Of a stretch of 64,000 nucleotides of DNA, positions 8,961 to 60,467 are shown in pieces. Each line of letters starts with the position of its first letter. Within the stretch, counting starts at the first letter, position 1. Position numbers and translations under genes: made by a program. The notes under the pieces were generated by a model that was given only the letters and a program-made list of their open reading frames with translations, was not told the DNA's origin and did not search any database. Source of the DNA: an uncultured Fibrobacterota bacterium (GTDB lineage Bacteria > Fibrobacterota > Chitinivibrionia > Chitinivibrionales > FEN-1185); the NCBI GenBank assembly GCA_963753345.1, contig CAVWBU010000024.1, positions 275,840-339,839 on the forward strand, in the 5' to 3' direction.

Positions 8961-10205
8961 ATGAGTAAGAATCCCGTTCTCTGCATCGTCGGACTCGGCT
9001 ACGTGGGCCTGCCGCTTGCCGTTGAATTCGCCAAGCATTTCACGGTCCACGGCTTTGACATAAGCGAAAAGCGCGTTGCGATCCTCAGAAAAGGCAGGGA
9101 CCCCAACCGCGAGGTGGACTCTCAGGTATTGTCGAGCGTCAAGATCGAGTATTCAAGCAACCCATCGGTCATCAGGAAAGCCGATTTCGTTGTGGTTGCC
9201 GTGCCCACGCCCATCGACGACCACAAGATCCCCGACCTTACGCCTGTTGTCAAGGCCTCGGAAACCGTGGGAAGGAACCTGAAGAGGGGCGCGATCGTGG
9301 TGTATGAATCCACCGTGTACCCCGGCGTCACCGAAGACGAATGCGTGCCGATCCTTGAGCGCGAAAGCGGGTTCACGTGGAAAAAGGACTTTTTCGTGGG
9401 ATATTCGCCGGAGCGCATCAATCCCGGCGACCGGGAGCACACGGTGTCGAAGATAACCAAGGTCGTGTCGGGAGACACCCCGCAAACGCTTGAGACCGTC
9501 GCCGCGGTTTATGGCGCCGCGGTGAAGGCGGGCGTGTACCGGGCGCCTTCGATAAAAGTCGCTGAGGCGGCGAAGGTGATCGAAAACACCCAGCGAGACA
9601 TCAACATCGCGCTCATGAACGAGCTGCGCATCATATTTGACAAACTGGGAATATCCACCACCGAGGTGCTCGCCGCCTCAAAGACAAAGTGGAACTTTCT
9701 TCCCTTTGAGCCCGGGCTTGTCGGCGGGCACTGCATCGGCGTCGACCCCTACTACCTGGCCTACAAGGCCGAGGAAATAGGCCATCACCCGCAGATCATC
9801 ATGGCAGGCAGGCGCATCAACGACGCCATGGGCAGGTATTTCGGCAGGGAAATCGTCAAGGAGATGACCAACAAGGGAATCTGCGTCAAGGACACGAGGG
9901 CGCTTGTGCTCGGCATCACGTTCAAGGAGAACGTGCCCGACATCCGCAATTCCAAGGTGATCGACATCATGAAGGAACTCGCCGAGTTCGGCGTCAAGGT
10001 TGACGTGTGGGAGCCCGTGGCCGACGCCGAGGAGGTGCGGCTGGAATACGGGATCACCCCGATTGCCAGGCCAAAACGGCACTCTTACGACGCAGTCGTG
10101 CTTGCCGTGAAGCACCGGGAGTTTCTTGAGCTGGGCAGGGCCGGGCTGTCGGCCTTCCTCAAGCCCAACGGTGTTTTCTTTGATGTCAAGGAAGCATTGG
10201 CATAG
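8961..10205 (+). CDS. UDP-N-acetylhexosamine dehydrogenase (WbpO/TviB family)
   Basis: Rossmann GLGYVGLPLA, YESTVYPG, YSPERINPGD, AKVIENTQRD, GGHCIGVDPYY, TFKENVPDIRNS. Confidence 0.93.
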   Translation: MSKNPVLCIVGLGYVGLPLAVEFAKHFTVHGFDISEKRVAILRKGRDPNREVDSQVLSSVKIEYSSNPSVIRKADFVVVAVPTPIDDHKIPDLTPVVKASETVGRNLKRGAIVVYESTVYPGVTEDECVPILERESGFTWKKDFFVGYSPERINPGDREHTVSKITKVVSGDTPQTLETVAAVYGAAVKAGVYRAPSIKVAEAAKVIENTQRDINIALMNELRIIFDKLGISTTEVLAASKTKWNFLPFEPGLVGGHCIGVDPYYLAYKAEEIGHHPQIIMAGRRINDAMGRYFGREIVKEMTNKGICVKDTRALVLGITFKENVPDIRNSKVIDIMKELAEFGVKVDVWEPVADAEEVRLEYGITPIARPKRHSYDAVVLAVKHREFLELGRAGLSAFLKPNGVFFDVKEALA

Positions 10206-10240: not shown

Positions 10241-10394
10241 TTGGGCGCCCCGCCGCTTTGTGGCGGCGGTCCTCCTTCCAGGCTCGGCCTTCGGCCTCGT
10301 TACCGCCTGCCACGAGGGTCCTTCGGGCCGTGGTCAGTCGGCAATCCCGCTTTGGCGGGACCATTTTTCCAGTCCGACCTGGCGCGCGGGCAGA
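10241..10394. repeat. structured intergenic repeat, module A copy 1
   Basis: Collinear with 20883-21062 and 54072-54250 (TGGGCG..., CTCGGCCTTCGGCCTCG, nested hairpins, CCAGTCC..CCT..CGCGCGG). Confidence 0.8.
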
Positions 10395-10531: not shown

Positions 10532-11176
10532 TCAATTGAACCGCTTCTCATCCCCCATATTCGGCCTAATAATCAATTCCTCATACTGTTTCCTCAGCGA
10601 CTCCCCGACCGCGGCATTTTCCCCCAGGCAATCCAGCGCCATGGCGATCGCCTCGACGGTTGCGAGGCCGTGCCTTTTTGTCTGGCCCCGCAACGACGGA
10701 TGGTCGGGATTGAGCGTGATCCGGTTGAGCTTGAGCAGCCACGGATTCCGCCACCACATAGCCTTTGCCTGCTTCCACGACCCGTCAATGACGATGATGC
10801 CTTTGAAACGTGTCGAAATGGCAAGGAGAAGGTTCTTCGGGCTGAACATCTCCAGTTTCCTCGACGGCTCCTTGATGCCTTTGAGCAACAGCACCGCCCA
10901 TGCATCCGCGTCTGCCTCTTCGCCGAGTGCGTGGGAAAGATTACGCCACGAAAGCCCGACGCGCAGCACGCTGTTGGCAAGCGCGCGGTGGGCAAGCATT
11001 GCCGAATTGAGAAGCTTGTGCTGTTCCTGGGGGTGTTGGAGGATAAGAACCTTTGCACCCGTGCCGAAAGGAACCGTTTTTCCGCACATGCACTGCGGAG
11101 TGAGGCGAAGGCATACAGGGCAAGCGTTCTTTTTGTCAATCTTCTTGGGGGTGGCTGCGGGCCTTGATGTTTTCAT
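10532..11176 (-). CDS. DTW-domain tRNA-uridine aminocarboxypropyltransferase family protein
   Basis: CPVC...CMC zinc ribbon, ILQHPQE, IDGSWKQAKAMWWRNPWL, LATVEAIA. Confidence 0.88.
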   Translation of the reverse strand: MKTSRPAATPKKIDKKNACPVCLRLTPQCMCGKTVPFGTGAKVLILQHPQEQHKLLNSAMLAHRALANSVLRVGLSWRNLSHALGEEADADAWAVLLLKGIKEPSRKLEMFSPKNLLLAISTRFKGIIVIDGSWKQAKAMWWRNPWLLKLNRITLNPDHPSLRGQTKRHGLATVEAIAMALDCLGENAAVGESLRKQYEELIIRPNMGDEKRFN

Positions 11177-19660: not shown

Positions 19661-20827
19661 TTATCCCTTCACCACCCCTAACGGTCGCAGCTTCACCACC
19701 ACCTCAACTAAATCCCTCTGCGCGTCGATCACCTCATCGATATTCTTGTACGCCTGCGGCGCTTCGCTCAAGTCAATCTTGCCTTTCCTTCCGCGCGGCC
19801 AGGTGTCAAACACAATTCCCTTCATCGCCTGCCGTACCTGCTCATAGGTGAGCGTCCGGTTCGCTTCATTTCTGCCCATTACCCTTCCCGCGCCGTGTGA
19901 ACAGGACTGGAAACTGTCGGCATTGCCGAGCCCGCGCACGATGTACGACGACGTCCCCATGCTCCCGGGAATGATCCCCTCCAGGCCTTTACTGGCGCGA
20001 GTTGCGCCCTTGCGATGCACCACGAGCGTCCGGCCGTAATGTGTCTCTTCCGCCGCGAAATTGTGGTGGATGTTGATTTCCCGCACAAAACCGCATCGCG
20101 TTTCGAATTGCAGCTGTTCGCAGCACACGTCTTTCATCCCGGCCCTGTTTTCGGCCGCGAATAGAAGCGCGTAATTCATCGCCGCCATGTATTCCTGGGC
20201 CATCGGATTGTCCATGGGCAGATAGGCAAGGTCATTGTCGGGAAGTTCCAGACCGCGCTTGGTGCAGAACGCAAGCGCCTTGTCGTGATACTCCTTAGCA
20301 ATTTTGTATCCGAAATTCCTGCTGCCGCTGTGGACCATGAGCCACACGAACCCGTCGCTGCCCGCCTGGATTTCAATGAAGTGGTTGCCGCCGCCGAGCG
20401 TTCCGAGCTGCTTGTGCGCAGAGTCAAGCTCGCGTTGGACAACCGCGACATCCGGAGCGTTGTCGAACCCGTCCCAATCCTGTGTTTGTTTGTGATGACT
20501 GAACCCCATGGGCACCAGCCCGCGGATGCGGTTGAGCACAATGCGCACGGTGTCCGCGTCTATTGACGACACAGGAAGATCGGTCTGCACCGCGCACATG
20601 CCGCAGCCGATGTCCACGCCCACCGCGTTGGGCACGATGGTGTCGTTGCAGGCAATAACGCCGCCGATGGGCATGCCGAAGCCTTCGTGGCAGTCGGCCA
20701 TGAGGGCCACGTGGCCGTAGACAAAAGGGAGTTTCGTGAGGTTGACCGCCTGCGCAAGCGCGCCCGGCTCAATGGTTTTGCACCAGGACTTGATGGGAAT
20801 TCGGTGGCCGGAGATGATGGATAGCAT
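19661..20827 (-). CDS. rtcB: RtcB family RNA 3'-phosphate/5'-OH ligase
   Basis: MADCHEGFGMPIGGV, VGVDIGCGM, LGTLGGGNHFIE, HSGSR, HHN, HRKGAT, IPGSMG, SCSHGAGR, EAPQAYK; start ATG 20827. Confidence 0.95.
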   Translation of the reverse strand: MLSIISGHRIPIKSWCKTIEPGALAQAVNLTKLPFVYGHVALMADCHEGFGMPIGGVIACNDTIVPNAVGVDIGCGMCAVQTDLPVSSIDADTVRIVLNRIRGLVPMGFSHHKQTQDWDGFDNAPDVAVVQRELDSAHKQLGTLGGGNHFIEIQAGSDGFVWLMVHSGSRNFGYKIAKEYHDKALAFCTKRGLELPDNDLAYLPMDNPMAQEYMAAMNYALLFAAENRAGMKDVCCEQLQFETRCGFVREINIHHNFAAEETHYGRTLVVHRKGATRASKGLEGIIPGSMGTSSYIVRGLGNADSFQSCSHGAGRVMGRNEANRTLTYEQVRQAMKGIVFDTWPRGRKGKIDLSEAPQAYKNIDEVIDAQRDLVEVVVKLRPLGVVKG

Positions 20828-20882
20828 GATTGGAAAATAGTTTGAATCAGGTATGATGATACCTTGCCATCTTGAAAAGAAA

Positions 20883-21062
20883 TTGGGCGTTCCCCTCGCC
20901 TTCGTCAAGACGCAGGCTCGGGTCGGCCCTCCTTCCGGTCTCGACCTTCGGCCTCGGGCCGCCTGCCACAATGGCCCTGCGGGCCGTGGTCAGGCGGCAC
21001 CGCGCTCCAGCGCGGCCTCCAGTCCTGCCTAACGCGCGGCAAAAGAACTCCGTTCGGTCAAT
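20883..21062. repeat. structured intergenic repeat, module A copy 2
   Basis: TTGGGCGTTCCCC...GGGTCGG...CTCGACCTTCGGCCTCG...CCTAACGCGCGGCAA...TTCGGTCAAT, shared with 54072-54250. Confidence 0.85.
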
Positions 21063-21123
21063 ATGTGTCTTCACGCCAGCCGGAACACATGGTGAAAAAA
21101 TGCCTTTTGCAACGACTCTCCAT

Positions 21124-21240
21124 GGGTGCCCCCCGCAGCAGGGCTTGGTCTTGCAACTACTTTGTCAAGGGGGCTACCCTGGAGAGGGGAGTGTCGAGGA
21201 CCGTAGGGCCGAGACCAGGGGAGATACCTCTCCCCCGACG
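21124..21240 (+). repeat. structured intergenic repeat, module B copy 1
   Basis: Near-identical to the reverse complement of 60279-60395 (7 differences in the last ~72 nt by hand alignment). Confidence 0.9.
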
Positions 21241-21253
21241 GCTTTATCAATTG

Positions 21254-23836
21254 TTATTTAACTGCAAATTCTAATTTGTCATCCCCCGCCGTAACTTTCA
21301 AAGCCTGCCCTTCCTTTAGATCTCCCGCCACCATAAGCCTTGACACCGGGGTCTCGAGTTCCTTTTGGATGGCCCTCTTGAGCGGCCGCGCACCATATAC
21401 TGGGTCGTAGCCTGTGCTGGCAAGCAGGGCCTTTGCCTTCTTGTCGGCGGAGAACGTGATGTTTCTCGCCTTGAGCAACTCCGAAAAACGCACGAGCTGA
21501 ATATCCACGATGCTCACCAGGTCGTCCTGCGAAAGCCCGTGGAACACCACGATCTCGTCGACGCGGTTCAAAAATTCCGGCCGGAAATAATTCTTCATTT
21601 CGGCCATCACCGTTTTCTTGATCGTCTCGTAATCGCCGCCCGCGTTCTCCACGATGTGCTGGGAGCCGATGTTCGACGTCATGATGATGATGGTGTTCTT
21701 GAAGTTCACCGTGTGGCCGTGCGAATCCGTCACGCGGCCGTCGTCGAGGATCTGGAGGAGCACGTTGAACACGTCCGGGTGGGCCTTTTCTATTTCGTCG
21801 AACAATATCACGCTGTACGGCCGTCTGCGCACGGCCTCGGTGAGCTGGCCGCCCTCCTCGTAGCCCACGTAGCCGGGCGGCGCGCCGATGAGCCGCGACA
21901 CGGTGTGCTTTTCCATGTATTCCGACATGTCAATTCTGATCATGGCGTGCTCGTCGTCGAACAGGTTGAACGCGAGGCTGCGCGCGAGCTCGGTCTTGCC
22001 CACGCCCGTGGGCCCCAGGAAAATAAAGCTGCCGATAGGGCGAGAAGGGTCCTTGAGCCCGGCGCGGCCGCGCAGCACCGCGTCGGCAACGGCGTCCACC
22101 GCCTCGTTCTGGCCTATCACGCGCTCGTGCAGGTGCTTGGCGAGCGAAAGGACCTTTTCCTTTTCGCCTTCAACGAGCCTGCTCACGGGGATGTGGGTCC
22201 ACCGCGCGACGATGGCCGCGATGTCCTCTTCGTCAACTTCCTCTTTAAGGAGGCGGTTGCCGTTGCCGGCCTTGAGCGCTTTTTCCGCTTCGGCAAGCTG
22301 GCGTTCGAGCTGGGGAATGGTGCCGTGCCGGACTTGCGCGGCCGTGTTGAGGTCGTAGGCGCGCTGCGCCTTGTCAAGTTCGTATTTCGCGGTCTCGAGC
22401 TTCTGCCGCAGCTGCTGGAGCGCGGCGATTTTCTGTTTTTCACCGTCCCAGCGGAGCCTGAGCTTGGAGGTCTTTTCCTTGACCTCGGCGAGCTCCTTGT
22501 TTAATTTGTCAAGACGTTCCTTCGACGAAGGGTCTTTTTCCTTTTTAAGGCCCGTGATTTCTATCTCGAGCTGCATCTGGCGCCGGCTCGCCTCGTCGAG
22601 CTCGCGCGGGCTGCTGTCCATCTCGGTGCGGAGGCAGGCCGCCGCCTCGTCGACAAGGTCGATGGCCTTGTCGGGCAGGAACCGGTCCGAGATGTACCGG
22701 TCCGACAGCACGGCCGCGGCCACGAGTGCGGCGTCGCGTATCTTGACGCCGTGGTGCACCTCGTAGCGCTCGCGCAGTCCGCGCAGGATGGAAATGGTGT
22801 CTTCCACGCTCGGCTGGTCCACGAGCACGGTCTGGAACCTGCGCTCGAGCGCCTTGTCCTTTTCGATGTGCTTTCTATATTCGTCAAGCGTGGTGGCGCC
22901 GATGCAGTGCAGTTCGCCGCGGGCGAGCATGGGCTTGAGCAGGTTGCCGGCGTCCATGGCGCCTTCAGCGGCGCCAGCGCCCACAACCGTATGCAGTTCG
23001 TCAATAAAAAGGATGATGCTGCCCTTCGCCTCGGTCACTTCCTTGAGCACGGCCTTGAGCCGTTCTTCGAATTCGCCCCGGAACTTCGCTCCCGCGATGA
23101 GCGCGCCCATGTCAAGCGACACCAGCGATCGGTTCTTGAGGCCTTCGGGCACGTCCCCTCGCACGATGCGGAGCGCAAGCCCCTCCACGATTGCGGTCTT
23201 GCCCACGCCCGGGTCGCCGATGAGCACGGGGTTGTTTTTCGTGCGGCGCGAAAGGATCTGGATCACGCGGCGGATCTCCTCATCACGGCCGATCACAGGA
23301 TCGAGCTTCCCCTTGTGCGCCATGTCGGTGAGGTTGCGCGAATATTTCTCCAGGGCGTTGAACGTCGCCTCGGGTTCGGGCGAGGTCACGCGCTGGTTGC
23401 CGCGCACCGCCTTGAGCGTTTCCAAAACTTTGGCGTGGCTCATTCTGAACCGCTCGCCTGCTTCGCGGCAGTCAGCGTCCTTTTCCAGCAGGGCGAGCAA
23501 CAGGTGTTCCACGCTCACGAATTCATCCTTCATGCGCGAGGCTGTTTTCTCCGCCTCCGAAATAACCTGCGTGAGGCCGCGCGACAGGTAGGTCTGGGTC
23601 GCGCCGCTTCCCGTGACGGCCGGGATTTTGCGCAGCTTGTCGATAACAGTCTCGGCAATGTCCTTTATGTCAACACCGAGCTTCTGCAGAATGGATTGCA
23701 CAAGGCCGCCCTGCTGCATCACGAGCGCGAGCATCAGATGCAGGGGAACCAGTTCCTGATGGTTCATCTCGACCGCGATCTTGTTCGCGCCTTCCAGGGC
23801 TTCCTGGGACTTGCTGGTTAGTTTTTCCGCGTTCAC
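21254..23836 (-). CDS. clpB: ATP-dependent chaperone ClpB
   Basis: Two AAA+ modules ([16 protein letters not shown]), long coiled-coil M domain, [18 protein letters not shown] start after AAGGAG; 860 aa. Confidence 0.98.
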
Positions 23837-39549: not shown

Positions 39550-42500
39550 TTAGAATCCGGTGGAAGCGCCGGAAATCTTGACAAGATTGGGCTGGGTGGT
39601 ATACGTACCGTTTCCAAGTTGTCCGTTGCCGTTGGCTCCGCAGACCCAGACCGTCCCATCTGTTTTCACAACGAAACTCGAACCATTCCCCGCGTCTGCC
39701 GCAATATACTGAACTCCGGACATTACGTTTTCTGGAGCCCGTCGCGTGGCTGTTTGTCCGTCACAAAGCTGGCCGTTCAGGTCGAACCCTGTTGCCCAAA
39801 GCACTCCTCCGGTCGTGAGCATCAACGTTTGCGTTTGACCTGCCGAAACGCTTGCCACATTGGCTACCGAGAGCATTTGGGCAGGTACGATGTTTTGAGT
39901 TGTGGAGCTGTCCGCATTTCCCAGCTGACCTGCGTAATTGAATCCCCAGCTCCAAACCGTGCCATCGCTCTTTATGGCGAAACTCTGCTGGTATGCGGCG
40001 GAAATACTCGTGAACGTGCCGGTGATAGTAACGGGATATAGGGTGGAATCGCCATTGTAAAGGGTGCCATAGCCGAGTTCACCGGAACCGTTATCTCCGC
40101 AGGCGTACAGCGTTCCATTAGTCATCAAAACCAGTGAGAACCCCTGCCCTGCAGCCACCGCTTTAACGCCCGAATAATAGACCTCCTCCGGACTGGTTCT
40201 GCTTATTGTGGTACCATCTCCAAGTTCACCAGAGGAATTTCCGCCGCAGGCCCACAGTGTTTGATCTTTCTTTAGTATCAAGATATGTGTGGAGCTTGCT
40301 GACATGCTTTGCACATTTGTCATGATCTTTGTAGTGCTGCCAGATGCGACTTGGTAAAGGTCCCCAGTGCTTGTAAGATAGAGGCTGGAGCCGCCATTGA
40401 CAGCGACGGCGCTAATAATGCCGGTCTTGACCTTTATGGGCGTGAGCTGAACAGTAGTTCCTCCGTCGCACAGTTCCCCATAGGAATCATCCCCGCATGC
40501 CCACAGTGTGCTGTCGGACTTGACAAAGAGGGTATGCATATCGCAGCAAGAGATCTGAGTCACACTGATAACGGTTACTGTGACACTTGCAGTTGAGGTG
40601 TTACCACATGGTGTGCTGCTTTCCGCACGTACATAATAAGTTGTGGTCGCTGCAGGAGTAACTGTAATGGAAGTCCCGGCACCTGCAGCGTTCGTGCATC
40701 CTGAGTTCGTGTACCATTTCCACGAAGCGCCAGTTCCAAGCGATCCTCCCGAAACGCTCACCGTCGTCGAATTGCCCGCATTGATTTTTGCAGATCCGGC
40801 AGTTGCCCCGGTCGGTGCAATTGAAGGCACACTAACGGTTATGGTGGTGGTCGCCGTTGCAGTATTGCCGCATGTGCCCTCGGCTCGCACATAATAGATG
40901 GTTGTTGACGTAGGAGAAACTGTTATGGACGCTCCCGTGTTGGTGCCCGTAACCGGGATGGTGCAGCCGGCGTCCGTGTACCAGTGGTACGAAGCGGCGG
41001 TACCGAGCGTTCCGCCAGACTCGGTGAGCGTTGAGGTGCTGCCGGAGCAGATGGTTGTCACGGTGGCGCCTATGCTTGTGGGAGCTACCGAGTTCGTGTT
41101 GACAGTAACGACTGCCGAGGAACCTGTTGTGTTACCGCAGGCGCCTTCGGCGCGGACATAATACGTTGTTGTGGTGCTTGGCGTCACCGTGATCGGAGTT
41201 CCCGTGTTGATGCCGGTAACGGGAGTGGTGAAGCCGGCATCGGTGTACCATTTCCAACTAGCGCCGGTGCCCAACGTGCCTCCCGAAACGCTGAGCGAGG
41301 AAGAAGTTCCCGAACAAACGGTTGAAGGCGTCGCAACCGCGCCATTGGCCGCTGTTGAGGGTGTATTCACCGTCACCATCACGCCAGCGGTCGCGGTGTT
41401 GTTGCCCGCGCCCTCCGCACGCACGTAATACGTGGTCGTTGACGTTGGAGAAACAGTTATCGGAGTTCCCGTGTTGTTGCCGAGCACGGGCGTCGTGCAT
41501 GCGGCATCCGTATACCATTTCCACGAGGCGTCTGTTCCAAGAGAACCGCCGGTAACGCTCAGTGAGGATGATCCGCCGGAACAGATGGCGGCCGGATCGG
41601 CCGAAGCGCCGGTGGGTGCGGTCGACGTAACGGTCAACTGCGTTGTGGAGGAATCCTTGCCCGTCGGGTTGGTCACCACCACTTTGTAAACCCCGCCGTC
41701 GGCGCCTCCCCATGTTTTCGAATAGGAAGCAGTTGTCGCGCCGGTGATTGCCGCGCCGTTGTAGTACCATTGATACGTAATGGGCGGCGTGCCGGATGCA
41801 ACGATCGTCAGCGCAGTGCTGCTGCCCTGAACAACATTGGTGGTCCCGGGGAGCGGCGTGGTAATGGAGGAATTAATCGTGACCGCAGTCTTTGAGGAAT
41901 CACTTCCTGCGCTATTTGTCACTACCACCTTGTAAACTCCGCCGTCGCCCGCTCCCCATGTCTTGGAATAGCTGCTCGAGGTTGCGCCGGAAATTGCCGC
42001 GCCGTTGAGATACCACTGGTACGTCAGCGTCGCAGTGCCGGCTGCCGTGACTGAAAGCGCCGTCGTGCTGCTTATCGCTATGCTCGTGCTTGCGCCAAGT
42101 CCCGTGGTGATGAGCGGGCTTACGGTAACCTGCGTGGTCGACGAATCCTTTCCCGCTGCGTTTGTTGCCACCACTTTATACGTTCCGCCGTCGGTTGCGG
42201 TCCAGGTCTTCGAATACGAACTCGATGTCGCGCCGCTGATTGCCGCGCCGTTAAAATACCACTGATAGGTCGGAGCGGTCCCGGATGCGGTGACCGATAG
42301 CGCGGTGCTGCCGCTTTGGATTACAGGCGTGTTTGCGGCAAGACCGCTCGTAATAACCGGGCTTACGGTCAATTGCGTCGACGAAGAATCCTTGCCCGTC
42401 GGGTTGGTCACCACCACTTTGTAAACCCCGCCGTCGGCGCCTCCCCATGTTTTCGAATAGGAAGCAGTTGTCGCACCGGTGATTGCCGTGCCGTTATAAT

Positions 42501-43797
42501 ACCATTGATACGTAATGGGCGCCGTTCCCGACGCGAGGATCGTAAGCGGCGTGGCGCTGCCCTGAACAACATTGGTGGTCCCGGGAAGCGGCGTGGTAAT
42601 GGAGGAATTAATCGTGACCGTAGTCTTTGACGAATCGCTGCCTGCGCTATTTGTCACTACCACCTTGTAAACTCCGCCATCGCCTGCTCCCCACGTCTTG
42701 GAATAGCTGCTCGTGGTTGCGCCGGTGATTGCCGCGCCGTTGTAATACCATTGATAGGTGAGCGTCGCAGTGCCGGCAGCCGTGACCGAAAGCGCCGTCG
42801 TGCTGCTTACCGCTATGCTCGTGCTCGCGCCAAGCCCCGTGGTGATGAGCGGGCTTACAGTAACCTGCGTGGTTGAGGAATCCTTTCCCGCGGTATTGGA
42901 CACCACCACTTTGTACGTTCCGCCGTCGGTTGCGGTCCAGGTCTTCGAATACGAGCTTGATGTTGCACCGGTGATTGCCGTGCCGTTGTAATACCACTGG
43001 TATGAGAGGTTGGCGCCGCCGGCAACGACCTGCAGCGCGGTTGTACCGCCTGCCGTGATGGAAGTAGTCGCAGCTAATGGGGTCGTGATCTGAACCGCGA
43101 TGACCGCGCTTACCGATATCTTCACCGTTACGGTGTCCGACATAGGTGGCGTGCCATTGTCGGTTGCCGCAAACACGGCGGAATCCGTTCCGGTGAATCC
43201 TGAAGGAGGCGTCCACGTGAATACAGTGCCGTTGAGCGTAGCGCCCTGCGGGCCCTTGACAAGAACGATAGTGCTGGTCTGGCCCGCGTCGGAATCCTGC
43301 ACCGACAGCGACAGCGAACATTCCTGCGTCGTGAGGATGTTTCGCACGCCCGACACCTCCAGCACCGGCGGCCGGTTGGGGGTGGGTTTGCCGGCAATAA
43401 TAATTGATGCCGTAACCGTCTTTTCCGTGCCGCCCGCGAAAACCACAATTGAAACGGTGCGGGTTCCGGCCGAACGGAACGTGATGGAAACATCCTGGGT
43501 CTCGGTCCAGGCTGTGCTCTTGTCAAAGACATGAACCGTGTCCGTATCGGTGACGCCGTAAACAGTCACCTTCACCGAATCGATGTAGGAAGGAAGATAG
43601 GCGGTCAGGGTGATGGTCACCTGGTTGCCGACACTGTCGGAAATGGTGGAGCCGCTTTTCTGGCCCGCGGAATTTTCAAGTACCGGCGTGACCGTTGCTT
43701 TGGAAGGATCGAACGGATTCTGCTGGCTGGTGCAGGTTAAAAGGACAAGTGAGGACACCAACAAGGCGAGCAACGAACCAGGTTTACAGGTACGCAT
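39550..43797 (-). CDS. large surface lipoprotein with tandem Ig-like domains and a C-terminal RCC1/BLIP-II propeller
   Basis: Leader ending LLTC; six YQWY.NG...DGG.YKVV repeats, four W.WYT...YYVRAE repeats; RCC1 repeats LWACG.N..GELG; 1415 aa. Confidence 0.88.
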   Translation of the reverse strand: MRTCKPGSLLALLVSSLVLLTCTSQQNPFDPSKATVTPVLENSAGQKSGSTISDSVGNQVTITLTAYLPSYIDSVKVTVYGVTDTDTVHVFDKSTAWTETQDVSITFRSAGTRTVSIVVFAGGTEKTVTASIIIAGKPTPNRPPVLEVSGVRNILTTQECSLSLSVQDSDAGQTSTIVLVKGPQGATLNGTVFTWTPPSGFTGTDSAVFAATDNGTPPMSDTVTVKISVSAVIAVQITTPLAATTSITAGGTTALQVVAGGANLSYQWYYNGTAITGATSSSYSKTWTATDGGTYKVVVSNTAGKDSSTTQVTVSPLITTGLGASTSIAVSSTTALSVTAAGTATLTYQWYYNGAAITGATTSSYSKTWGAGDGGVYKVVVTNSAGSDSSKTTVTINSSITTPLPGTTNVVQGSATPLTILASGTAPITYQWYYNGTAITGATTASYSKTWGGADGGVYKVVVTNPTGKDSSSTQLTVSPVITSGLAANTPVIQSGSTALSVTASGTAPTYQWYFNGAAISGATSSSYSKTWTATDGGTYKVVATNAAGKDSSTTQVTVSPLITTGLGASTSIAISSTTALSVTAAGTATLTYQWYLNGAAISGATSSSYSKTWGAGDGGVYKVVVTNSAGSDSSKTAVTINSSITTPLPGTTNVVQGSSTALTIVASGTPPITYQWYYNGAAITGATTASYSKTWGGADGGVYKVVVTNPTGKDSSTTQLTVTSTAPTGASADPAAICSGGSSSLSVTGGSLGTDASWKWYTDAACTTPVLGNNTGTPITVSPTSTTTYYVRAEGAGNNTATAGVMVTVNTPSTAANGAVATPSTVCSGTSSSLSVSGGTLGTGASWKWYTDAGFTTPVTGINTGTPITVTPSTTTTYYVRAEGACGNTTGSSAVVTVNTNSVAPTSIGATVTTICSGSTSTLTESGGTLGTAASYHWYTDAGCTIPVTGTNTGASITVSPTSTTIYYVRAEGTCGNTATATTTITVSVPSIAPTGATAGSAKINAGNSTTVSVSGGSLGTGASWKWYTNSGCTNAAGAGTSITVTPAATTTYYVRAESSTPCGNTSTASVTVTVISVTQISCCDMHTLFVKSDSTLWACGDDSYGELCDGGTTVQLTPIKVKTGIISAVAVNGGSSLYLTSTGDLYQVASGSTTKIMTNVQSMSASSTHILILKKDQTLWACGGNSSGELGDGTTISRTSPEEVYYSGVKAVAAGQGFSLVLMTNGTLYACGDNGSGELGYGTLYNGDSTLYPVTITGTFTSISAAYQQSFAIKSDGTVWSWGFNYAGQLGNADSSTTQNIVPAQMLSVANVASVSAGQTQTLMLTTGGVLWATGFDLNGQLCDGQTATRRAPENVMSGVQYIAADAGNGSSFVVKTDGTVWVCGANGNGQLGNGTYTTQPNLVKISGASTGF
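41627..43095 (-). repeat. intragenic tandem duplication of a three-Ig-domain block (735 bp period)
   Basis: GTAATGGAGGAATTAATCGT occurs at 41861 and 42596; domain order ABC-A'B'C'. Confidence 0.9.
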
Positions 43798-51775: not shown

Positions 51776-52852
51776 TCACGCAACAGCGGCGCCGCTTTGG
51801 GCCCTCGAAAAAAGCCCGGCGCTCACAGATCCGTTTCTCGCCGCCGCGATCACCAGCGCGGAGGCGACGGGCCCGGTCATTCCGCTTTCAAACGATCCGG
51901 CGCAAGACGGGTGCGCGGGAAACGCGGGGTACACGGCGCCGTTGGCCACGATATCGCATGCGACAAGCGCCGACAGCATGGCGCCGAGGCCGAACGTCTC
52001 GCCGAACAGGGGCCTGGTGAACAGCAGAGCAGGCTTTGGGCCGCCCGCTTTTGCGATTGCGGCAAGGGCCGAAAGCTCGTGCCCGTCCTGCGGCCCTGCC
52101 CCCGCGCCCGAAATCACCACGCCGGCGCCGCCGCGCCAGTCGGCGGGATCGACGGGCGTAAACAGGCACAGCGGTTTCTTATCCGTAAAGTGCGACAGGG
52201 GCTCGAGAACCGCAAACGCGCTGCCTTCGCTTATGCCGAGTCCCGCCGCGCCTTCCCCGCGCGGAAACGGCAGGTGCGGCGGCGCCGAAGCGCCGAGCCA
52301 GCCGCACGTTCTGTATGCGTCGTGCACCACCGGAGAGTATTCTTCCGACGATCCCGCAAGGCAGGCCTCGTAGTGCGAATCCACGATCGCGCGCGCGCAA
52401 TAGCAAAGCACCTCGCACCCGTTGTTCTCGTACCCGAGCATGGTGGTTCCGCCGCAGGTCATTTTGAGGACCGCGGAAACCGACGACAGCGGCGCATTGG
52501 TCACGCCGTTTGAGAAGCTGTTCGGCGACGCCATGTCGGGACCGTAGTCAAAGAGAAGATCGTGGAATTCGACCATGTGCGAGGTTGACCCGTGCGAAAG
52601 GCCCATAAAAAGCCCTGTCCGTTCGGCGGCGCGGCCCGCCGCGGCCATGGCGCATGACGCGGCGAACAGCGAGAAGCGCGCGAGCTTCGACATGCGCCGC
52701 ATGTCGTTTTTGGAAACGCCGCCGATTGCCGGAACGGATTCCACGAGGCGCACATTGCCCGGGCCGGCGCTTCGGGCCGCTCTCAGCGACGCGAGGTCGG
52801 TTCCCCAAGGACCGATAAGGCCGATGCCCGAAATGCCGACTGTTGCGTTCAC
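51776..52852 (-). CDS. beta-ketoacyl synthase chain-length-factor-like protein (non-catalytic)
   Basis: RRMSKLARF, SPNSFSNGVTNAP, SEGSAFAVLE; Glu at the catalytic Cys position (LGYENNG); start overlaps the KS stop. Confidence 0.78.
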   Translation of the reverse strand: MNATVGISGIGLIGPWGTDLASLRAARSAGPGNVRLVESVPAIGGVSKNDMRRMSKLARFSLFAASCAMAAAGRAAERTGLFMGLSHGSTSHMVEFHDLLFDYGPDMASPNSFSNGVTNAPLSSVSAVLKMTCGGTTMLGYENNGCEVLCYCARAIVDSHYEACLAGSSEEYSPVVHDAYRTCGWLGASAPPHLPFPRGEGAAGLGISEGSAFAVLEPLSHFTDKKPLCLFTPVDPADWRGGAGVVISGAGAGPQDGHELSALAAIAKAGGPKPALLFTRPLFGETFGLGAMLSALVACDIVANGAVYPAFPAHPSCAGSFESGMTGPVASALVIAAARNGSVSAGLFSRAQSGAAVA

Positions 52853-54045
52853 TGCGCGGCCCTCTCAAGAAGCAAGCATGCCGCTTCGCCGCCAAACCCG
52901 AGCGACGTGACGGCCGCGCGGGTCAGCGGCATTCTGCGCGGAACTGCGGCAACCCAAAGTCCATTAAACTGTGGATCTATTGTCTCATGAAATACCGTGG
53001 CGGGAACGAGACCCGCTTCGAGCGACAGCACGGTGAGGACCGCGCTTACCCCGCCGGCAGCGCCCAGCGTGTGGCCGGTCATTGACTTTGTGGAACACAC
53101 CGGAACCTCAGCGAGCCTGTCGCCGAAAACGGTTTTGAGGGCATTGTATTCGGAAAGGTCGTTTATCACGGTCGCGGTGCCGTGAAGGTGCACGTGGTTT
53201 ATTGTTTCGGCGGCCCATAACGCCCGGGCCGTGGACGTGTTCAGCGCCTCAGCGATGCCGCTGCCGTCCGGGTTGGAGCGCGTGTGGTGAAACGCCTCGA
53301 GCGCCTCCCCGAACCCCTTGACATACGCAAGCGGCCGCGCCCCGCGCGCCTGCGCGGCGGCAACGCTTTCCAGCACAAGCGCGGCCGCTCCCTCGCCCGG
53401 ATTGAGTCCGTCGCGGCCGGCGTCGAACGGTTTGCAGGCTTTTTTCGAGAGCAGGCGCAGGGAGTTGAAACCCGCCACGATAAACGGGCACAGCGCTTCG
53501 CTGCCGCCCGCGCACACCTTGGATGCCCGGCCGCTCTGTATCATCCTGAAGGCGTGGCCGATGGCCGTGGCGGCCGACGCACATGCGGAGGACAGCGTGT
53601 AACGGCGGCCGGTAATGTGGTTTTTTTCCGCCGCAAAGTCCGTCACCGCGCTCGGCAGGAATCCCGAAACGAGCCTGATGTCCGGCGCAAGCCCTTGCTT
53701 CTTCTGCCCGTAGTATAATGTTCCGCCGTGGAAATTGCTCGCCGTGGTGCCGACAATGATGTCGGCCTCGCACGGGCCCTGCACGCCTGCCCCGGCAAGC
53801 GCCTCCCTGCACGCCATATCGAATAGAAGGCTGGCCCGGTCGGCCGCGGTCTCTTCAATGGAATGCGGAAACGCCTCGTGCGGCACCATGCCGCAGACGA
53901 CTTCCGTCCGGTATTTTCCCTCAAAGAAAGGATGCGCCGCAAGGCCGGACCGGCCATTGACAAGCGCGTCGCGATGGACCGGCACGCCCGCTCCCAGCGC
54001 GGAGACGATGCCCATGCCGGTTATGCAAACGTCATTTTTGTTCAT
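52849..54045 (-). CDS. beta-ketoacyl-ACP synthase (FabF-like, catalytic)
   Basis: SSACASA, PFDAGRDGLNPGEGAA, HLHGTAT..ND, KSMTGHTLGAAG, SLGFGG. Confidence 0.93.
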   Translation of the reverse strand: MNKNDVCITGMGIVSALGAGVPVHRDALVNGRSGLAAHPFFEGKYRTEVVCGMVPHEAFPHSIEETAADRASLLFDMACREALAGAGVQGPCEADIIVGTTASNFHGGTLYYGQKKQGLAPDIRLVSGFLPSAVTDFAAEKNHITGRRYTLSSACASAATAIGHAFRMIQSGRASKVCAGGSEALCPFIVAGFNSLRLLSKKACKPFDAGRDGLNPGEGAAALVLESVAAAQARGARPLAYVKGFGEALEAFHHTRSNPDGSGIAEALNTSTARALWAAETINHVHLHGTATVINDLSEYNALKTVFGDRLAEVPVCSTKSMTGHTLGAAGGVSAVLTVLSLEAGLVPATVFHETIDPQFNGLWVAAVPRRMPLTRAAVTSLGFGGEAACLLLERAAQ

Positions 54046-54071
54046 GTGATTTTTTTAATTCAAGAAGAGGA

Positions 54072-54250
54072 TGGGCGTTCCCCCTGCGCCTTCGCCTCCG
54101 CTCGGGGTCGGGTCGGTTCTCCTCCGGGCTCGGCTATTCGCCTCGTTGCCGGACCGCCCCTATGCCCGTCGGCGGGGTCGGCCGGCAATGCTGCTCTGGC
54201 GCACCCTCCGTCGCCCCTAACGCGCGGCAACAGATTTCTATTCGGTCAAT
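54072..54250. repeat. structured intergenic repeat, module A copy 3
   Basis: TGGGCGTTCCCC...GGGTCGG...CTCGGCTATTCGCCTCG...CCTAACGCGCGGCAACAGA...TTCGGTCAAT. Confidence 0.85.
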
Positions 54251-54334
54251 TACTTCTTCTCGCGCCAATCGGCATTCGCAATAAATCAGTCAAGGAATCC
54301 TCTTTGAATTCCAACCTCTTCAACTCTCTTTCTT

Positions 54335-54465
54335 GGTGCCCCCGCAACCAAAGTTTCATTCTTGCAAATCAACTCTCTAGGGGGCTACCCACGAGGGGGT
54401 ATGGGTGCAGACCCCGCAGTCCCGCGGGACGAGGAGGCTGCACCCTAGGGGGACACCTCCCCCTC
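54335..54465 (+). repeat. structured intergenic repeat, module B copy 2 (variant inner hairpin; overlaps radical SAM stop)
   Basis: GGTGCCCCCGCA...TCTTGCAAATCAACT..CT.GGGGGCTACCCACGAG...GGGGGACACCTCCCCCT; first half matches 60279-60395 reversed. Confidence 0.82.
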
Positions 54466-55674
54466 CAAGACTCTTTTATCTTCTTTCTTTTCCAATCTTT
54501 TTTTAAACAGTTTATACATTTTATAGGTTTGCGGCTCGCTCTTGTAAAACGTGTTCCACGCATAATCGTACAGCTCCTGCAGCTTCTCGGGCGTCATGTG
54601 CTTCGGCTTGAACACCACCTCGCCCGCCGTGTAGCGCGCCGGATCGTTGGTGAGGATGCGGCCCTCGCGCTCGAGCTGCTCGCGTATGGGCGTGTGCGCG
54701 AAAGGCGTGAGCACGGTGAATTCCGCAAGGTCAAGGTCTATTGCCATGAGAAAATCCACGAGCCGCTTTACAAAGTCCTCGGTGTGGTCGTCGGTGCCCA
54801 GGATGATGGTCCCCTCCACGCCGATGCCGAAGCTCTTGTACCGCTCTATTCGTTTCCGGATGAAATCGGAAGTGTCGAACACCGCCTGGTACACGTACCA
54901 GGCGCCGGCCTGCGCTGCCTTTTCGAGCACGTCAGGGTCGTCTTCAATGGGATGGCAGCACCAGTGCTTTTTAAACGGAATCATTGCCGTAAATAAATCA
55001 AGCTCCCACTTCTTGTCCTGCGCGAGCGAATTGTCCACCACAAAAAGCCCGTCGTTGTCGATGGTGGCGAGCTCCTCGACCACTTTGTCAATGGGCCGGG
55101 GCCTAAAGCTCCTGCCGCCCAGAAACGGCGTGCAGCAGGGGAAGCAGTTGAACCTGCACCCGCGCGACGCGTGGAACAGATCGACCATGCGCGTGCCCTT
55201 GTAGGCGTATTTTTCGTGATTGAGGATTCCGCGCCGGGCAGGCCCCACCAGCGCAATGTCGGGAAAATTCTGGAGATAATTGTATTCCCGCTTGAAGCCC
55301 CCGGCCCTGAGGTCGAGAAACACCTGTTCGAGCCTTCCCTCGGCCTCGCCCAGAAACACGCTGTCCGCGTGACGCTTCACCTCATCGGCATGCAGCATGG
55401 CGGCGATGCCGCCGAAAATCACCGGGACCTTTCGGGCGCGGAATTCCCGCGCGATGGCAAACGCGCGCGGCAGTTGACAGGTGAGCATTGCGGAAATGCC
55501 CACCGCGTCCCACGATCCGCCGAAGGGGACCGCGTCGACGTTCTCGTCGGCGAACGTCACCGACACCCACGACGGCAGCGCGGCCGCCATCACCACCGGC
55601 CCGTGCGGGGGCAGGTGAAACTCGGTCTGGAACTTCAGCTTGGGCCAGGAGGGATAGACAAGAAGGAATTTCAA
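54445..55674 (-). CDS. B12-binding-domain radical SAM protein
   Basis: N-terminal cobalamin-binding-like region (VIFGGIAA, GEAEG); SRGCRFNCFPC (CxxxCxxC); TTG start after AAGG. Confidence 0.88.
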   Translation of the reverse strand: MKFLLVYPSWPKLKFQTEFHLPPHGPVVMAAALPSWVSVTFADENVDAVPFGGSWDAVGISAMLTCQLPRAFAIAREFRARKVPVIFGGIAAMLHADEVKRHADSVFLGEAEGRLEQVFLDLRAGGFKREYNYLQNFPDIALVGPARRGILNHEKYAYKGTRMVDLFHASRGCRFNCFPCCTPFLGGRSFRPRPIDKVVEELATIDNDGLFVVDNSLAQDKKWELDLFTAMIPFKKHWCCHPIEDDPDVLEKAAQAGAWYVYQAVFDTSDFIRKRIERYKSFGIGVEGTIILGTDDHTEDFVKRLVDFLMAIDLDLAEFTVLTPFAHTPIREQLEREGRILTNDPARYTAGEVVFKPKHMTPEKLQELYDYAWNTFYKSEPQTYKMYKLFKKRLEKKEDKRVLEGEVSP

Positions 55675-60278: not shown

Positions 60279-60395
60279 CGTCGGGGGAGAGGTCTCTCCC
60301 CCGGCCTCGGCCCTACGGTCCTCGGCACTCCCCTCTCGTGGGTGGCCCCCAAGAAAGTTGATTTGCAAGAAAGAAGCTTCCGCTGCGGGGGCACC
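60279..60395 (-). repeat. structured intergenic repeat, module B copy 3 (inverted)
   Basis: Reverse complement aligns with 21124-21240. Confidence 0.9.
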
Positions 60396-60422
60396 TAGAA
60401 AGAATTGTTGGTAGGGTCCAAG

Positions 60423-60451
60423 CTCCGGTCCACCTAACGCGGGGCAACAGA
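60423..60451. repeat. truncated end of module A (copy 4)
   Basis: CTCCGGTCCACCTAACGCGGGGCAACAGA versus CTCCAGTCCTGCCTAACGCGCGGCAAAAGA near 21017-21046. Confidence 0.7.
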
Positions 60452-60467
60452 CACCGCCCACAACTTT

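Follow-up and report, generated by a model that had tools for sequence, protein, structure and literature searches.

Module A, a repeat unit of about 160 nt present in about 400 copies in the genome of an uncultured Fibrobacterota bacterium, is probably a non-autonomous mobile repeat, similar in kind to REP/BIME elements or to bcr1, whose fold would be selected during its spread. The selection of the fold itself is strongly supported, as the helices covary through many independent compensatory changes. The wobble pairs show no strand signal, and the sites occupied by the repeat differ between closely related species.

An initial annotation of the window (the whole 64-kb stretch of DNA that was analysed) had described three full copies and one fragment of module A. 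This count stands, as the covariance model R1 places three copies and the right-end motif recurs at 60427-60446. At E<=1, the only matches of R1 in the window are exactly copies 1, 2 and 3; R1 was built from 67 copies including these three, so that their recovery is partly by construction, and BLAST and nhmmer searches seeded with copy 2 alone recover the module A family independently of R1. The fragment gives no R1 match, being too short for model scoring, and carries the right-end motif with two mismatches. This 20-nt motif, GTCCNNCCTRRCGCGNGGCA, occurs four times in the window when up to two mismatches are allowed, versus 0.12 expected, and none of 100 shuffles reaches four. The features of the window are as follows (neighbouring genes were identified with Pfam).

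8961-10205, + strand: UDP-glucose dehydrogenase gene, neighbour of copy 1
10241..10394, + strand: module A copy 1, full length (R1 110 bits, E 2.4e-19), GCGCC/GGCGC subfamily
10532-11176, - strand: DTW-domain gene, neighbour of copy 1
19661-20827, - strand: RtcB gene, neighbour of copy 2
20883..21043, + strand: module A copy 2 (R1 161.4 bits, E 4.3e-29)
20887-20891/21031-21035: helix P1 of copy 2
~20892-20922: variable hairpin P2 of copy 2
20958-20998: long hairpin P7 of copy 2
21000-21015: helix P8 of copy 2
21044..21200, + strand: right-hand part after copy 2, a ATTCGGTCAAT box followed by the module B hairpin (GGGTGCCCCC ... GGGGCTACCC)
21254-23836, - strand: ClpB gene, neighbour of copy 2
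52849-54045, - strand: ketoacyl-synthase gene, neighbour of copy 3
54071..54231, + strand: module A copy 3 (R1 101 bits, E 1.2e-17)
54232..54400, + strand: right-hand part and module B after copy 3 (repeat families D14 and D15)
54445-55674, - strand: neighbour of copy 3, a gene with a weak match, below the Pfam cut-off, to a B12-binding domain
60331..60396 (ends approximate), - strand: inverted module B beside the module A fragment, reverse complement of the GGTGCCCCCGCAGC...GGGGGCCACCC module
60423..60455, + strand: right-end fragment of module A (TCCGGTCC-ACCTAACGCGGGGCAACAGA), which aligns with the 3' end of the full copies

The genes that flank the window copies (UDP-glucose dehydrogenase, DTW, RtcB, ClpB, ketoacyl synthase and the weak B12-binding match) are mutually unrelated housekeeping genes.

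Family, fold and covariation of module A

The source assembly (G000; 4.52 Mb in 55 contigs, 55.9% G+C, 94% complete) contains 411 merged places related to module A according to a BLAST search with the three window copies, 429 hits after two nhmmer rounds (206 on the + strand and 223 on the - strand, 340 of them near full length) and at least 150 full-length copies according to R1; near-identical small contigs in the assembly slightly inflate the copy count. Ten of the 340 near-full copies were lost at contig ends, which left 330 with enough flank, 318 of them distinct. The copies, whose median pairwise difference is 31% (10% to the nearest copy), are both old and diverse. The junctions and loops of the unit are near-invariant (TGGGCG, GGTCGG, CCTCCTTCCGG, CTCGG, GCCTCG, GGCA, CCTCC.GTCC and CCTRRCGC), and the left flank is A-rich, with 50-83% A across 13 positions. 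A coding role for module A was rejected on account of the hairpin-sized indels and of the base-pair covariation found between copies.

Module A belongs to a larger repeat. The 210-215 nt located to the right of copies 2 and 3 form a repeat in their own right (317-366 nhmmer hits, mostly full length), whose components are a ATTCAGTCAA box, the CTTGCG..CGCAAG hairpin, repeated CTTTTCAA units in a tract and module B. This right part lies at a fixed offset from module A for 236 of the 429 hits, and 163 of the 429 have no same-strand right part within 400 nt. The arms of the module B hairpin (GGGTGCCCCC / GGGGGCCACCC) are similar to the left end of module A; module B can be described as an inverted pair of a motif similar to this left end (TGGGTGCCCCC versus TGGGCGYYCCC).

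One fold is common to all copies of module A, with eight helices, three junctions and 43-48 pairs. RNAalifold, applied to HMM-anchored columns, gave the same structure for three random subsets of 50 copies and for both strands. The closing helix P1 (HMM columns 18-22/156-160) is GCGYY/RRCGC, and the hairpin P2 has a base of 4 bp below a tip that varies freely. P3 (50-52/152-154), P4 (57-58/146-147) and P5 (62-63/141-142) are long-range helices separated by conserved pyrimidine-rich internal loops, P6 is GGCC-UUC-GGCC, P7 is a two-part long hairpin and P8 is a 6-bp hairpin. The base-pair swaps that had been read from the window copies alone are all present in the sequence and have a counterpart in the family-wide fold: the swap of the closing helix, GCGCC/GGCGC in copy 1 versus GCGTT/AACGC in copies 2 and 3, corresponds to P1, that of the small hairpin (TCCCGC/GCGGGA versus CCGCGCT/AGCGCGG) to P8 and that of the long arm (GCCGCCTG/CAGGCGGC versus TTGCCGG/CCGGCAA) to P7.

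The 48 pairs of the 318 distinct copies comprise 12453 Watson-Crick cells, 1054 G-U cells, 339 A-C cells, 1095 other combinations and 323 gaps. Two or three pair types are frequent at many pairs (58:146, TA 168/CG 127; 93:112, CG 184/AT 74/GC 6; 126:139, CG 180/TA 124). Events were counted on a FastTree tree by Fitch reconstruction, the tree being derived from the same 160 columns as the pairs. Double changes on the same branch occur 307 times at the proposed pairs versus 33 expected by chance, and 220 of these 307 lead from one canonical pair to another. Such canonical doubles drop to 3-13 when the 3' partner is slid by 1-3 columns; over 200 permutations of the partners, their mean is 8.8 and their maximum 44. 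Gene conversion between copies can carry both halves of a local hairpin, but the slid-partner control, which shares the effects of the tree and of conversion, stays low. Independent changes reach 24 at pair 58:146, 19 at 85:121, 18 at 127:138, 17 at 125:140 and 16 at 93:112. The swap of the closing helix (TA in 221-224 versus CG in 78-80 of the 318 copies) involves only two independent events per pair and mainly marks a subfamily.

A separate MAFFT alignment, A2, comprises 67 of 70 chosen copies, the three others being excluded because of insertions of about 40 nt. In A2, 90.6% of the cells are paired versus 30.0-47.8% with slid partners, 29 of 43 pairs show changes on both sides versus 12-17, and cells changed on both sides number 258 versus 29-61; none of 500 shuffles reaches any of the five measures used. 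The tips of P2 and P7 are swapped in A2 for unrelated hairpins of 6 to about 25 bp. The statement of the initial annotation that the structure is under selection is strongly supported by the excess of canonical doubles over the slid control and by the pairing found in A2. The outcome of RNAalifold itself varied with the alignment supplied: a raw MAFFT alignment of 330 copies gave almost no structure on account of its 577 columns, and only 20 of the pairs were recovered from A2.

Strand, gene context and distribution

The reference strand, on which module A was annotated, is rich in pyrimidines (39.5% C and 19.7% T, with 31.9% G and 8.9% A). With RNA parameters, the opposite, purine-rich strand has a mean folding energy of -80.8 versus -78.5 kcal/mol for the reference strand and is the more stable of the two in 249 of 338 copies, a number that rises to 287 of 338 with DNA parameters. 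The conserved internal loops read on the purine-rich strand as GGA/GGA-type purine loops, a type that is probably stable. Wobble pairs are distributed about evenly: once five doubtful pairs are excluded, 278 G-U cells on the reference strand stand against 334 A-C cells (G-U when read on the opposite strand), and single steps away from Watson-Crick pairing number 109 towards G-U and 120 towards A-C. Wobble use does not depend on the strand of the neighbouring gene (59/69 on the same strand versus 88/106 on the opposite one, Fisher p=0.91). This parity of G-U and A-C, together with the independence from the direction of neighbouring genes, leaves an RNA-level role unsupported. Selection on the fold stands, yet none of these data point to the local transcript as the molecule on which it acts. 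The annotation of module A as a structured RNA or a multicopy ncRNA is therefore not borne out by the strand data, the orientation relative to genes being only weakly biased (see below).

The resemblance to the Flavo-1 RNA motif that had been suggested was not recovered with Rfam 15: no model reaches its gathering score in the whole window, and Flavo-1 is absent among the weak matches. Only purD (14.5 bits) and BSR0441 (11.7 bits) match positions 20700-21300 at E<=10, and 20 diverse copies searched at E<=1 give only three chance matches to microRNA hairpins. As far as these comparisons of sequence and structure go, module A matches no catalogued RNA. A consensus scan of positions 20700-21350 found no terminator-like site on either strand and one promoter-like site, which is on the + strand and outside of the element, with none on the purine-rich strand. 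An intrinsic terminator was rejected on the grounds that no terminator-like site was found and that the T-rich flank begins about 12 nt past the last helix. A cis-regulatory leader or riboswitch was also rejected, the orientation being mixed (161 gene starts versus 168 gene ends) and the neighbours unrelated.

Gene context was obtained with a crude gene caller that overextends gene starts, for the 329 copies flanked on both sides by called genes; six other near-full copies lie inside gene calls. The 329 copies are found between codirectional (169), convergent (102) or divergent (58) genes. The codirectional genes are more often opposite to the reference strand, i.e. oriented as the purine-rich strand (103 of 169), than on the same strand (66; binomial p~0.005), and the orientation of module A relative to genes is thus weakly biased. 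Its left end faces a gene end in 168 cases and a gene start in 161. When a same-strand gene ends there (155 copies), the distance from the stop codon to the left end is 0-142 nt, mostly 13-28. In spacers shorter than 600 nt, inverted pairs of module A have their left ends outward in 32 cases versus 0 in the other arrangement. The orientation shows a weak association with local GC skew (167 concordant copies versus 116 not, Fisher p=0.003), and that of genes is similar (1530 versus 1153). Crude gene calls cover about 77% of the genome, and where modules A and B occur, they occupy most of the spacer together with the parts that join them. In these uncultured bacteria from peat and soil, the repeats probably influence where operons end and where synteny breaks.

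Among the five congeners, R1 gives at least 71 matches in each of four (G001, G002, G004 and G005) and none in the fifth, G003, which is 99% complete. No match was found in two other genera of the same family, and weak matches, 1-12 per genome, occur in seven genomes from other families of the order (best E 3e-9). Distant copies keep the junction sequences and form P1, P6 and P7 with other base pairs. An even sampling of the phylum (151 genomes) gave matches to R1 at E<=1e-4 in 15, counting G000; 14 of these genomes belong to the same order, and the remaining one is a weak match outside of it. An exact 24-nt junction motif has no match in a viral collection and occurs in 63 stretches among 185,579 species genomes, of which 58 are in three assemblies of Fibrobacterota/Fibrobacteres/Chitinivibrionales; the five single matches outside Fibrobacterota were dismissed as chance, each scoring at most 10 bits with R1. 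Based on these searches, the family appears to be confined to Fibrobacterota of one order, Chitinivibrionales, and amplified to hundreds of copies in one genus. A full-text search of the literature found no account of such repeats for Chitinivibrionales or Fibrobacterota.

Turnover of sites, propagation and rival explanations

Genes flanking the sites are about 91% identical to those of G000 in G001 and 70-84% identical in G002, G004 and G005. The spacer occupied by copy 1 is 363 nt long in G000. It measures 11 nt (G001), 94 nt (G004) or 61 nt (G002) in three congeners, all of them without the element there. At the site of copy 2, the genes are about 15 nt apart in G002, and G005 has another gene there and no element. 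At the site of copy 3, G004 carries both A and B, G001 carries B and a gene-end hairpin without A, and G002, G005 and G003 carry neither module, which indicates that A and B vary separately. Twenty loci of G001 were compared with G000. One of them (L096) measures 415 nt and is filled in G001, and in G000 it measures 65 nt and is empty; at another (L094), G000 has an unrelated GC-rich stretch of 197 nt exactly in the place of A; at a third (L107), the element lies at a synteny break. In two adjacent spacers of L099, the composite of A and right part is in opposite orientation in G001 and G000. The G001 copy of the first of these spacers has its best G000 matches at other loci (92-93% identity), the same-site copy ranking 29th with 80%; for the second spacer, no same-site match is found among the matches listed. 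An in-place inversion of the first spacer was rejected, as the best match of its copy is elsewhere in G000, and we read this spacer as a likely re-insertion or replacement. The proposal of the initial annotation that module A is a non-autonomous mobile element gains support from sites whose occupancy differs between species, being filled in one and empty or differently filled in its congeners.

Insertion is not clean, as the comparison of filled and empty alleles reveals replacement of the whole spacer, sometimes including the last codons of the adjacent gene. Homologous recombination between strains could therefore account for part of the polymorphism. Sixteen of 23 candidate same-site pairs were compared, after four pairs in opposite orientation and three short pieces had been dropped. 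These 16 pairs are 67-88% identical; their paired columns differ by 21.6% and their unpaired columns by 24.1%, against a background of 79.3% identity at codon position 3 of the flanking genes and 84.5% in other aligned intergenic DNA. The 16 pairs give no sign of conservation for the sake of the site, the copies being no better conserved than silent sites. They differ by 77 double changes that keep pairing versus 60 single ones, a pattern which fits exchange of copies rather than point mutation in place.

Searches with PF01797 and the comparison of genes bracketed by copies brought out no partner of module A. The ends of module A share only the 5-bp complement of P1 (GCGTT), without long terminal inverted repeats, and direct repeats of 4-9 nt are no commoner than in shuffled flanks, whether sought at the boundary of A (342 copies) or at that of the composite (73). 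G000 has no match at E<=0.001 to PF01797, the family of Y1 transposases to which RAYT belongs, and control genomes do match. In congeners, PF01797 matches number 0 in G001, 8 in G002 (six of them identical and IS-like), 0 in G003, 2 in G004 and 2 weak ones in G005, and its presence does not track that of module A. The 30 single genes located between inverted A copies share no similarity, except two identical pairs on duplicated contigs. Two candidates were rejected: in a low-copy genome of another family (G033), three copies surround a gene encoding a ThiI-like PP-loop protein with an NFACT-R_2 domain, which is not a transposase, and a 930-nt IS-like repeat present in four copies has ends unrelated to those of module A. 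The 267-aa ORF of this repeat has no Pfam match at E<=0.01.

Taken as a whole, the propagation of module A as a mobile repeat might proceed as follows. New copies would arise by insertion into A-rich DNA at gene boundaries or by replacement of one copy by another. The propagation step would require the fold, whose invariant loops may be bound by a trans-acting protein reading a folded single strand, either DNA or RNA of either strand. The partner enzyme would be other than a Y1/RAYT transposase detectable in the source genome. If the fold is needed for propagation, selection would act on spreading lineages and not on the benefit that each copy brings to a neighbouring gene. Against this reading, we know of no REP or IS200-type DNA signal as elaborate as an eight-helix fold. 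Compensatory doubles number 136 on terminal branches and 75 on internal ones, with similar ratios of paired to unpaired rates (0.61 and 0.65), and compensation on terminal branches could equally reflect a fold that is maintained in place for a host-level function.

Such a function could be that of a cis-acting RNA serving the host as a 3'-end stabiliser, decay barrier or insulator in neighbouring mRNAs, a role that is established for some REP elements and that module A could fill in either orientation, as both strands fold. The position of the copies at gene boundaries, with the left end mostly 13-28 nt past a stop codon, and the larger number of convergent than divergent spaces are what such a role would predict, as are the purine-rich strand, co-oriented with the genes in 103 of 169 cases and folding slightly better, and the structure-preserving changes that continue on terminal branches. 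We nevertheless consider this role unlikely, since G-U/A-C use is independent of the transcribed strand, same-site copies of sister species are conserved no better than silent sites, the nearly complete congener G003 lives without any copy and many orthologous gene pairs manage without the element.

Genes for a multicopy trans-acting ncRNA, with a promoter in the conserved right part (TTGACTGAATAGAT, on the other strand) and an end in the T-rich left flank, are a good deal less probable. On the purine-rich strand, the structure is immediately preceded by a conserved box and followed by a T-rich run, and the loops do not vary between families of the order; however, the scan of 20700-21350 found neither a promoter-like site on that strand nor a terminator-like site, the 163 hits mentioned above lack the right part that would hold the promoter, wobble pairs carry no strand signal and one such RNA would not be expected in hundreds of diverged copies. 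The least probable of these explanations, by our estimate very improbable, is a catalytic or retro-mobile RNA whose junctions would form a self-cleaving or catalytic core and which would spread via an RNA intermediate: neither a ribozyme nor a group II intron model of Rfam gives a match and strand asymmetry is absent, even if the complexity of the fold, with the three branch points of R1, and the near-invariance of unpaired nucleotides across the order would suit a catalyst. The mobile repeat whose fold is selected during spread remains the reading that we favour.

Comparison with known systems

To our knowledge, the bacterial interspersed repeats studied to date are simple hairpins (REP), hairpin doublets (REPIN) or MITEs bounded by terminal inverted repeats. 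The fold of module A is as elaborate as that of a mid-sized ribozyme or riboswitch and is kept over hundreds of copies that are 30% diverged. Its many compensatory changes come with neither a strand signal nor a link to neighbouring genes. An elaborate covarying fold that nevertheless lacks these two features calls for caution in the discovery of RNA motifs, as strong covariation alone does not prove an RNA. The existence of close species with hundreds of copies and of one with none makes module A a tractable case for finding what reads such a fold. One unlikely possibility, broader than the mobile repeat favoured above, is that module A is the recognition scaffold of a bacterial mobilisation system of an undescribed kind. 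An enzyme unrelated to RAYT/IS200 transposases would recognise its 160-nt, three-junction fold with invariant loops on single-stranded, folded DNA or RNA. Module A would spread without target duplications and overwrite whole intergenic spacers, as a bacterial counterpart of non-autonomous elements that depend on structure, such as SINEs, possibly with a catalytic core.

MITEs such as Correia/nemis, RUP and ERIC are defined by terminal inverted repeats and target-site duplications. Like them, module A is non-autonomous, intergenic, able to fold and of similar length, but target-site duplications were not detected and its ends share only GCGTT. It resembles REP, BIME and REPIN elements in being extragenic, GC-rich, folded, abundant, bound to a lineage and absent from relatives, and in occurring singly or as inverted pairs. 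It differs from REP and REPIN elements by its length of about 160 nt and its long-range helices P1 and P3-P5, instead of a palindrome of about 20-40 nt, and by the lack of a PF01797 match in the genome; module B alone would fit an inverted doublet of the REPIN type. REPs are described as single hairpins of about 25-35 nt (PMC3184786) and REPINs as doublets served by a single-copy RAYT (PMC3337134, PMC3116915).

Of the elements described, bcr1 comes nearest to module A. This element of the Bacillus cereus group (group A) is about 155 bp long, multicopy and intergenic, occupies sites that vary between close strains and keeps its fold by compensatory changes; it forms a cruciform of two stem-loops, is flanked by direct repeats of 5 bp and is transcribed (PMC3184786). 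Module A is similar to bcr1 in its size, its intergenic location, the variability of its sites among relatives and the maintenance of its fold by compensatory changes, and differs in having eight helices, three junctions, about 400 copies and no flanking direct repeats.

Module B and the hairpins at gene ends

Three occurrences of module B, the hairpin module that lies in the right-hand part adjoining module A (the intergenic repeat of about 160 nt with eight helices), and two short GC hairpins with the pattern GGGGGA-NNNN-TCCCCC are found in the window.

21120-21190, module B hairpin, by module A copy 2
about 21215-21240, short GC hairpin, between module B and the gene end
54330-54400, module B hairpin, by module A copy 3
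54410-54436, short GC hairpin, between module B and the gene end
60331-60396, module B, inverted

The arms of the module B hairpin, GGGTGCCCCC and GGGGGCCACCC, are both similar to the left end of module A (TGGGCGYYCCC). Judging from this resemblance in sequence, a single end motif may be used three times in each composite of module A and its right-hand part. At the site of copy 3, the sister species G001 carries module B without module A. The GC hairpin of this site is retained in G001 and in two further congeners, G004 and G005, the latter having neither module A nor module B there; it is probably a terminator-like hairpin that belongs to the gene itself.

GGAGG boxes and adjoining gene starts

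Two GGAGG boxes are conserved in the internal loops of module A, on its purine-rich strand. The gene starts that adjoin the elements (20827 and 54045 in the window, and that of the extracted locus L096) have A/T-rich leaders, and no GGAGG-like ribosome-binding site was seen when the sequence of these three leaders was read.

Other repeats of the window and its genome

Repeats of families D1-D4 (40694-43024) lie within the following gene call, whose product is a repetitive protein without relation to module A.

39550-43797, minus strand, gene call of 1416 codons, composed of 246-nt and 267-nt units in tandem

A small palindrome, GTAGAG(A/C)CGC...GCG(T/G)CTCTAC, is nested in hairpin tips of module A, at P7 in some copies (rows L057, L058 and L053 of the 67-copy alignment A2) and at P2 in others (L037, L066, L018, L020 and L013). 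This distribution in the alignment is suggestive of a second hairpin repeat, of smaller size, which would land in hairpin loops.

Outside the window, an unrelated GC-rich stretch of 197 nt (G000:C19:74688-74884) fills the exact slot that module A occupies in G001, and may represent a further repeat family.

Many small contigs of the window's own genome, G000, match parts of larger contigs at 95-99.6% identity (for example C3/C37/C17, C4/C16, C7/C24 and C13/C19): the assembly is redundant at the strain level, and copy counts of any kind come out slightly too high. Another repeat, 930 nt long and with TTATTTATGGATAAGCTCT as its inverted ends, is present in four copies (L112:401-1330, that is G000:C18:84600-85529, and three more). 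One copy adjoins a copy of module A on contig C49. The 267-aa ORF of the repeat has no Pfam match at E<=0.01, and the whole resembles an insertion sequence whose family is unrecognised.
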